The notes under the pieces are model-generated. The model worked only from the letters and a program-made list of their open reading frames with translations, searched no databases and was not told the origin of the DNA. Source: Escherichia coli (GTDB lineage: Bacteria > Pseudomonadota > Gammaproteobacteria > Enterobacterales > Enterobacteriaceae). From it: DNA of 458 bases. This document shows positions 1 through 458 of the stretch, in pieces; positions within the stretch are counted from its first letter, which is position 1, and every line of letters begins with the position of its first letter. A program made the position numbers and the translations under genes. The stretch lies in the NCBI RefSeq assembly GCF_003334255.1, contig NZ_QOWU01000235.1. One strand, given 5' to 3'.

Positions 1-458
1 CTTCCCAGCTGGCTGTCAGGTTTTGGTGTACCAAACGGCATGTTCTCCTGGTAAATCTGCGCCCCCATGAAGTTTTCATTCATGGCAAGGTTCGCAAACG
101 GACGCAGAATGGTCGGTGCTGCGTTTTTCAGCAATGCCCCCGACAACGTTTCCGACGTCTCGCTGCCGATCGGGCTGAATGCCCCCAGGATACCGCCGAC
201 AACATTACCGGCAGCACGTGAAGCAGTCAGGTCGCCCGCTGCCACACCTTCAGCTGTATGACCAAGCAGGAAGAACACGTTGTACCCGTAAGGCAGAGGA
301 ATACTCCAGTACTCACCGGCCTTGCCCCCGAACATCGATTTCATGATGACGAGGTTACGCTCTTTCACATGAGACGGTACTTTGTCGTACCAGTTAACCC
401 CGTCATCATCCTCACCCGCCACACTGCGGTTAAGCGAGCCAAGCAGATAACCCGCTCC
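1..458 (-). CDS. Partial CDS (internal fragment, both ends outside the window) encoding a Gly/Ala-rich hypothetical protein; family not assignable from sequence alone
   Basis: Seen in sequence: reverse-complement frame starting at nt 458 is open for 152 codons (nt 458..3, with 2 nt of the next codon at 2..1). Translation: GAGYLLGSLNRSVAGEDDDGVNWYDKVPSHVKERNLVIMKSMFGGKAGEYWSIPLPYGYNVFFLLGHTAEGVAAGDLTASRAAGNVVGGILGAFSPIGSETSETLSGALLKNAAPTILRPFANLAMNENFMGAQIYQENMPFGTPKPDSQLG. The other two minus frames reach stops quickly (TGA and TAA within roughly 30 codons of the window's 3' end). A 152-codon stop-free run at about 55% GC is unlikely by chance (roughly (61/64)^152, under 0.1%). Codon usage is enterobacterial-like: CTG is 8 of 15 Leu codons, with CCG, AAC, TAC, TTC and GGT/GGC preferred. 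No start or stop codon lies in the window, so gene boundaries and full length are unknown. Confidence 0.85.

Follow-up and report, generated by a model that had tools for sequence, protein, structure and literature searches.

The 458-nt stretch of Escherichia coli contig NZ_QOWU01000235.1 (55% G+C), in the following called the window, raises the question which of its strands carries a gene and what this gene encodes. In the list of open reading frames (ORFs) available for it, the only ORF of at least 60 amino acids (aa) is located on the plus strand at 67..261 and comprises 64 aa. An earlier note on the window had pointed to this single entry and had claimed that the minus strand is open from end to end. 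Both statements were correct. Six-frame translation gave 152 codons without a stop for minus-strand frame 1, read from position 458 down to 3, and 1-11 stops for each of the remaining five frames. We assign the window with virtual certainty to the interior of one long minus-strand gene, which encodes a giant protein of Shiga toxin-type short-tailed prophages.

By definition, the ORF lister omits ORFs running off either end, and hence the minus-strand frame is missing from its list. The remark in the earlier note that ORF finders delimited by start and stop overlook such frames thus agrees with the lister's own definition. It had also been stated that neither a start nor a stop is present in the window. 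This holds for the stops. For the starts it is literally wrong, as 11 in-frame ATG/GTG/TTG codons were counted, and right only in the sense that none of them is preceded by a stop. The true start of the gene is located 7.4 kb upstream of the window. The open frame by itself is only moderately unusual. Of 20,000 mononucleotide shuffles, 272 (1.4%) produced at least one of the six frames open over the whole window, and the analytic estimate of this chance is 0.85%. This observation is suggestive, not decisive.

The coding status of the minus frame is certain due to homology and to the distribution of substitutions over the codon positions. Compared with gene L0134 of phage 933W, 30 differences were found over 456 aligned bases, 27 of them in codon position 3, three in position 1 and none in position 2 of the minus frame. 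Two amino acids are changed in the window (M to V and I to V), and the ratio of nonsynonymous to synonymous substitution rates (dN/dS), determined according to Nei-Gojobori, is 0.024. As judged from this comparison of sequences, the substitution pattern shows purifying selection in the minus frame. Homology to the minus frame, as expected in the earlier note, was detected over the whole window. The N-terminal part of the Pfam family LPD38 (PF18857) is encoded at 15..395 on the minus strand (hmmscan, window peptide residues 22-148 against model positions 2-112 of 189, E=1.4e-28). With tblastn, the window peptide matched 291 phage records, and for the surrounding part of the protein relatives were found among 7,487 cluster representatives (see below).

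Flanking sequence was available from identical records. Megablast gave 100% identity to the window in three E. coli chromosomes (SCU-104, UCPROB-001 and UCPROB-002), and these show a long minus-strand gene. In SCU-104 the window is located at locus L001 12001-12458, inside the coding sequence (CDS) HHJ22_RS17470 (L001 11439-19823, minus strand, 8,385 nt, WP_174147770.1, "LPD38 domain-containing protein"). Its translation comprises 2,794 residues without internal stop. The window (1..458, minus strand) encodes residues 2456-2607, read from 458 to 3, and bases 2-1 open codon 2608. The gene had been predicted to exceed 456 nt, probably by far; it is about 18 times as long as the window. The frame stays open beyond the window on the flanking sequence, and nothing was found in favour of the plus-strand ORF.

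The sequence is common in E. coli and its phages. At an identity of at least 90%, megablast yielded 426 records, which belong to 425 of 5,426 complete E. coli genomes; in all of them the annotation reads either "LPD38 domain-containing protein" or "LPD5 domain-containing protein". Some of these genomes contain 2-3 copies, and SCU-104 carries the sequence at two places, which implies several 933W-like prophages per chromosome in these cases. Phage GER2 is 100% identical to the window. Further 184 phage records show 90-95% identity, nearly all of them Shiga toxin (Stx)-converting phages of E. coli and Shigella. Four records labelled as plasmids contain the window sequence, too. On the protein level, 182 of the 291 phage records found with tblastn are 97-100% identical to the window peptide. 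About 100 records of Vibrio phages show about 45% identity, in giant CDSs such as the 9,393-nt NVP1205O_20.

Named L0134 in 933W, vb_24B_48 in phi24B and WP_174147770.1 in RefSeq, this is the same giant gene of the Sepvirinae Stx phages, with allelic differences only; over the window, its DNA shows 93-100% identity in 426 E. coli records and 186 phage records. The RefSeq version begins 12-13 codons later than those recorded for 933W and phi24B. Knowledge of the gene dates back to the genome of 933W, where it is L0134; RefSeq annotates it, Pfam and PHROGs classify it, and two papers discuss it. It is the largest gene in the most widespread family of Shiga toxin-converting phages. The earlier note is therefore a correct diagnosis of an artefact in the ORF track and no discovery.

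The plus-strand ORF at 67..261 was examined as a possible gene that replaces or overlaps the minus frame. It has an ATG start, is the sole ORF of at least 60 aa in the list, and the dN/dS of its frame compared with 933W is rather low (0.094). This value is passive, since the third codon positions of the plus frame coincide with those of the true frame. Hence, a low dN/dS alone neither rejects nor validates antisense ORFs. The ORF was rejected on the basis of stop codons, of its non-conserved ends and of a distant homolog. Its plus frame contains 5 stop-containing codons across the window. In 933W, the stop codon of the ORF is replaced, and 5 of its 64 residues are changed for 20 nucleotide differences. 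The 45%-identical Vibrio homolog has stops in all three antisense frames and a stop at the position of the ATG. Among the annotated records examined, none has a gene at this position. We give next to no credence to a real gene on the plus strand; the 64-aa ORF is a shadow ORF, a by-product of the opposing coding strand. The window was also scanned with Rfam at E≤1, and no RNA family was matched; thus, there is no sign of an embedded RNA. In the phi24B record (HM208303), three antisense CDSs termed "hypothetical protein" are located within vb_24B_48, namely vb_24B_50c, 51c and 52c (7192-7515, 9667-10047 and 10398-10769). Like the ORF at 67..261, these are probably shadow ORFs.

From a methodical point of view, short windows located wholly within long genes defeat an ORF track that is delimited by starts and stops, and antisense shadow ORFs are reported instead. 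In the GER2 record (MG710528; window at 5760-6217), no CDS is annotated over the whole giant gene of about 8.4 kb, and only 3 CDSs are annotated in the surrounding 18 kb. Many of the LC6xxxxx records of Stx phages likewise have no CDS under the match. The gap in the ORF track thus recurs in public phage annotation.

Regarding the genomic context, the gene was shown to close the late (virion) operon of 933W-like, Shiga toxin-type short-tailed prophages (Sepvirinae) of E. coli. SCU-104, 933W and phi24B share this arrangement, with the tail genes, then lom and then five small conserved genes ahead of the giant gene. Both in 933W (block L0129-L0134, 3432-15020) and in Vibrio phage 1.205.O (NVP1205O_15-20, 550-13002), the giant gene is preceded by five small genes, which are similar in size between the two phages. 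L0130 is 26% identical to NVP1205O_16 (E=2e-15), and L0133 is 29% identical to NVP1205O_19 over 108 aa (E=3e-12). Phages of E. coli and of Vibrio thus seem to have a six-gene block in common.

On its other side, at the prophage junction of SCU-104 (L001 11217-11439), the stop of the giant gene and yfdC are separated by only 221 nt. Within this spacer, at 11283-11306, the sequence gtcctcttagttaaatggatataa resembles the 5' part of a tRNA, and we take it to be a fragment of argW. No intact tRNA was detected by ARAGORN around the junction. About 4 kb following L0134 in 933W (L0135-L0142, hokW/sokW) are absent from SCU-104, where a Hok/Gef gene adjoins lom instead (L001 23100-23240).

Such an end of the gene, next to a tRNA fragment and with the downstream region of 933W missing, would also fit a decaying pseudogene in a defective prophage, whose open frame is a relic. 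The splitting of the giant gene into two CDSs in some public records points in the same direction. We consider a pseudogene highly improbable, though: the 100%-identical copy retains an uninterrupted frame of 2,794 codons and the dN/dS is as low as given above, the same sequence is found in GER2, which was deposited as a complete phage genome, and the product of an ortholog is present in infectious phi24B virions. Two CDS features under the match were found in AP004402, AP005153 and NC_004913, annotated as "hypothetical protein (x2)" or "LPD5 domain-containing protein | hypothetical protein". Either the giant gene may be split there, owing to a frameshift or to an error in sequencing, or the second annotation may overlap the first.

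The product of the gene was examined over its full length. A Pfam scan in three overlapping pieces identified LPD5 (residues 1051-1200), LPD1 (1361-1440), MuF_C (1750-1840) and LPD38 (2477-2682, E=1.3e-48, model positions 2-189). LPD38 runs past the left edge of the window, and the window was shown to encode the first two-thirds of this domain. LPD5, LPD1, MuF-C and LPD38 were all defined by Iyer, Burroughs, Anand, de Souza and Aravind (2017, J Bacteriol; PMC5512222). PHROG 616 matched from end to end (residues 1-2794 against profile positions 1-2793, 6098 bits). Weaker PHROG matches were found to the C-termini of other families of giant proteins; among them, PHROG 10089 ("DarB-like antirestriction") showed a weak match confined to residues 2355-2682 (E=1.2e-27). 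The NCBIfam model CLCA_X remained below its threshold (residues 1182-1437, 152 bits at a cut-off of 260). As to a metallopeptidase domain, which could cleave such a polyprotein into units, HExxH motifs occur twice, at residues 1284 and 1551, whereas the Pfam scan of the full protein matched no peptidase family. With the defence-system models of PADLOC, no family was detected at E≤0.01.

The location of the protein in the virion was deduced from the phi24B ortholog. Mass spectrometry of purified phi24B virions revealed a protein termed gp47, with stated 2,811 aa and the domains LPD5, LPD1, LPD38 and MuF-C, which was missing from both the cryo-EM map and the negative-stain images (bioRxiv 10.64898/2026.04.10.717836). 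The authors of this preprint proposed that gp47 is packaged in the capsid and is an ejection protein which forms or extends a trans-periplasmic conduit. The phi24B record contains a single giant gene, vb_24B_48 (2,807 aa). Its product and the SCU-104 protein share 92% identity over the full length and 150 of 152 residues across the window. As phi24B has only this giant protein, vb_24B_48 was equated with gp47. The proteomic result is transferred to the gene of the window because of the high identity of the two proteins. Literature searches yielded no functional study of 933W L0134 or of any other ortholog, the broader ones giving the phi24B preprint only, and no demonstration of a transfer of the protein into the host. 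We consider it probable that the protein is packaged in the virion and ejected. Its packaging is based on the mass spectrometry of phi24B virions in the literature, its ejection is inferred. The protein would be packaged inside the capsid and, at infection, be expelled through the tail with the DNA or ahead of it.

Which part of the protein could serve this process was considered by comparison of its relatives. The last 455 aa were searched against 1.84 billion cluster representatives. The 7,487 proteins mentioned above were obtained at E≤1e-3; with the limit set at E≤1e-30, 3,324 remained. The best 150 of these relatives have a median length of 2,519 aa and a maximum of 5,181 aa. The median distance between the end of the match and the C-terminus is 1 residue, and it does not exceed 15 residues for 148 of these proteins. 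In the full-length comparison with the same 150 proteins, residues ~1900-2794 are common to 138-149 of them, whereas any part of residues 1-1900 is found in 0-52. Thus, the proteins of this family combine variable N-terminal parts with a C-terminal module that is constant and about 900 aa long. In BFVD, the same module is joined to N-terminal regions with LT_GEWL, RelA/SpoT and methylase. Sequence searches of the PDB with the C-terminal 914 aa and with a profile of the module gave matches at chance level only, and no similarity of the module in fold or sequence to any known enzyme or solved structure was found. The module is abundant in phage sequence space; its function is a question of the gene family and not a discovery in this window.

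Several conserved features of the module are encoded in or next to the window. The motif ERN (protein residues 2488-2490; 354..362, minus strand) is near-invariant: in alignment A1, N151 is invariant and E149 and R150 are conserved in at least 90% of the sequences, and the motif is kept in an alignment of 147 sequences. PLPYGYN (residues 2509-2515; 279..299, minus strand) is invariant or near-invariant, with P170 and P172 invariant and Y173, G174, Y175 and N176 conserved in at least 90% in alignment A1; the Vibrio phage homolog keeps it as PMPYGYN. The most conserved motif of the module, TVNFNRxGE (residues 2392-2400; SCU-104 locus ~12624-12650), is located just upstream of the window in the gene. 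It is part of the sole internal stretch with a pLDDT below 50 in the AF2 model (module residues 55-69). Being invariant in an apparently flexible loop, it could be a candidate interaction, cleavage or catalytic site.

At its right edge (417..458, minus strand) the window encodes the C-terminal half of a conserved hydrophobic helix (protein residues 2446-2469, IVLAAVGAGYLLGSLNRSV). In the AF2 model this helix is predicted at module residues 107-130 with a pLDDT of 80-90. Its 19-mer at residues 2450-2468 has a Kyte-Doolittle value of 1.35, the second highest in the protein after 1.57 at residues 180-198. In 147 homologs, the median for the same 19-mer is 1.32, and 13% of them reach at least 1.6. 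As these scores are only borderline, a membrane-spanning function of the helix was not adopted.

From the architecture of the whole family we tentatively suggest that the C-terminal ~900 aa (residues ~1900-2794), of which the window encodes a portion, may be the constant delivery part of the protein, responsible for the incorporation into the head and/or for the exit and the crossing of the envelope. The variable N-terminal two-thirds would then carry exchangeable effector or enzymatic domains, here including the two HExxH motifs. This proposal is our own, and we regard it as possible rather than probable. With similar reserve, the module might be described as a previously unrecognised universal chassis, which moves very large cargo into the capsid and out via the tail and possibly forms a conduit across the envelope; TVNFNRxGE, ERN and PLPYGYN would mark an interaction or active site.

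The main rival to such a delivery function is that the LPD38 module itself is an enzyme or an effector acting on a host target, in line with the anti-defence interpretation of polyvalent proteins by Iyer et al., and not a structural element for delivery or a conduit. The invariant polar motifs TVNFNRxGE, ERN, PLPYGYN and NENF, which are of a type common in active or binding sites, speak for this rival. An enzymatic role would also agree with the weak match to the DarB-like PHROG family and with the concept of polyvalent proteins itself (PMC5512222). However, an effector is expected to vary and to be exchanged between phages, whereas this module alone stays constant in otherwise mosaic proteins and keeps its place at their very C-terminus. 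The label of the PHROG family stems from other parts of those giant proteins, and neither a methyltransferase nor a helicase domain is present here. Furthermore, LPD38 does not belong to the seven potentially enzymatic LPDs of Iyer et al. (PMC5512222), and the module has neither a PADLOC match nor a similarity to known enzymes. We therefore consider an enzyme or effector function of the module rather unlikely and prefer, with the reserve given above, a role in delivery.

For such a role, known phage proteins offer partial analogies. The ejection proteins of podoviruses (gp7, gp16 and gp20 of P22; gp14, gp15 and gp16 of T7) are located inside the head of short-tailed phages, are invisible in symmetrised maps and are released at infection, and the giant protein may play an analogous role. 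It differs from them as a single polypeptide that is about 2-10 times larger and has no clear membrane-spanning segments, and no similarity in sequence or fold to the characterised ejection proteins of the P22 and T7 type was found. With the virion RNA polymerase gp50 of N4 and with DarB of P1 it would share a general logic, that is a very large protein packaged in the head and delivered with the DNA. Unlike in these two, the Pfam scan of the full protein gave no polymerase, methyltransferase or helicase domains.

The polyvalent proteins, described as giant multi-domain proteins of phages and conjugative elements, were proposed to enter the host with the DNA (PMC5512222). LPD38 is reported to be restricted to the phage-type polyvalent proteins and was left without a function (PMC5512222). 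The protein encoded by the window's gene corresponds to this type in two respects: it combines several conflict or invasion domains (LPD5, LPD1, MuF_C and LPD38) in one very large polypeptide of 2,794 aa, and its gene is located among the late (virion) genes. The placement of LPD38 in a constant C-terminal module of about 900 aa is not part of the description by Iyer et al. (2017) and was found in the present analysis.
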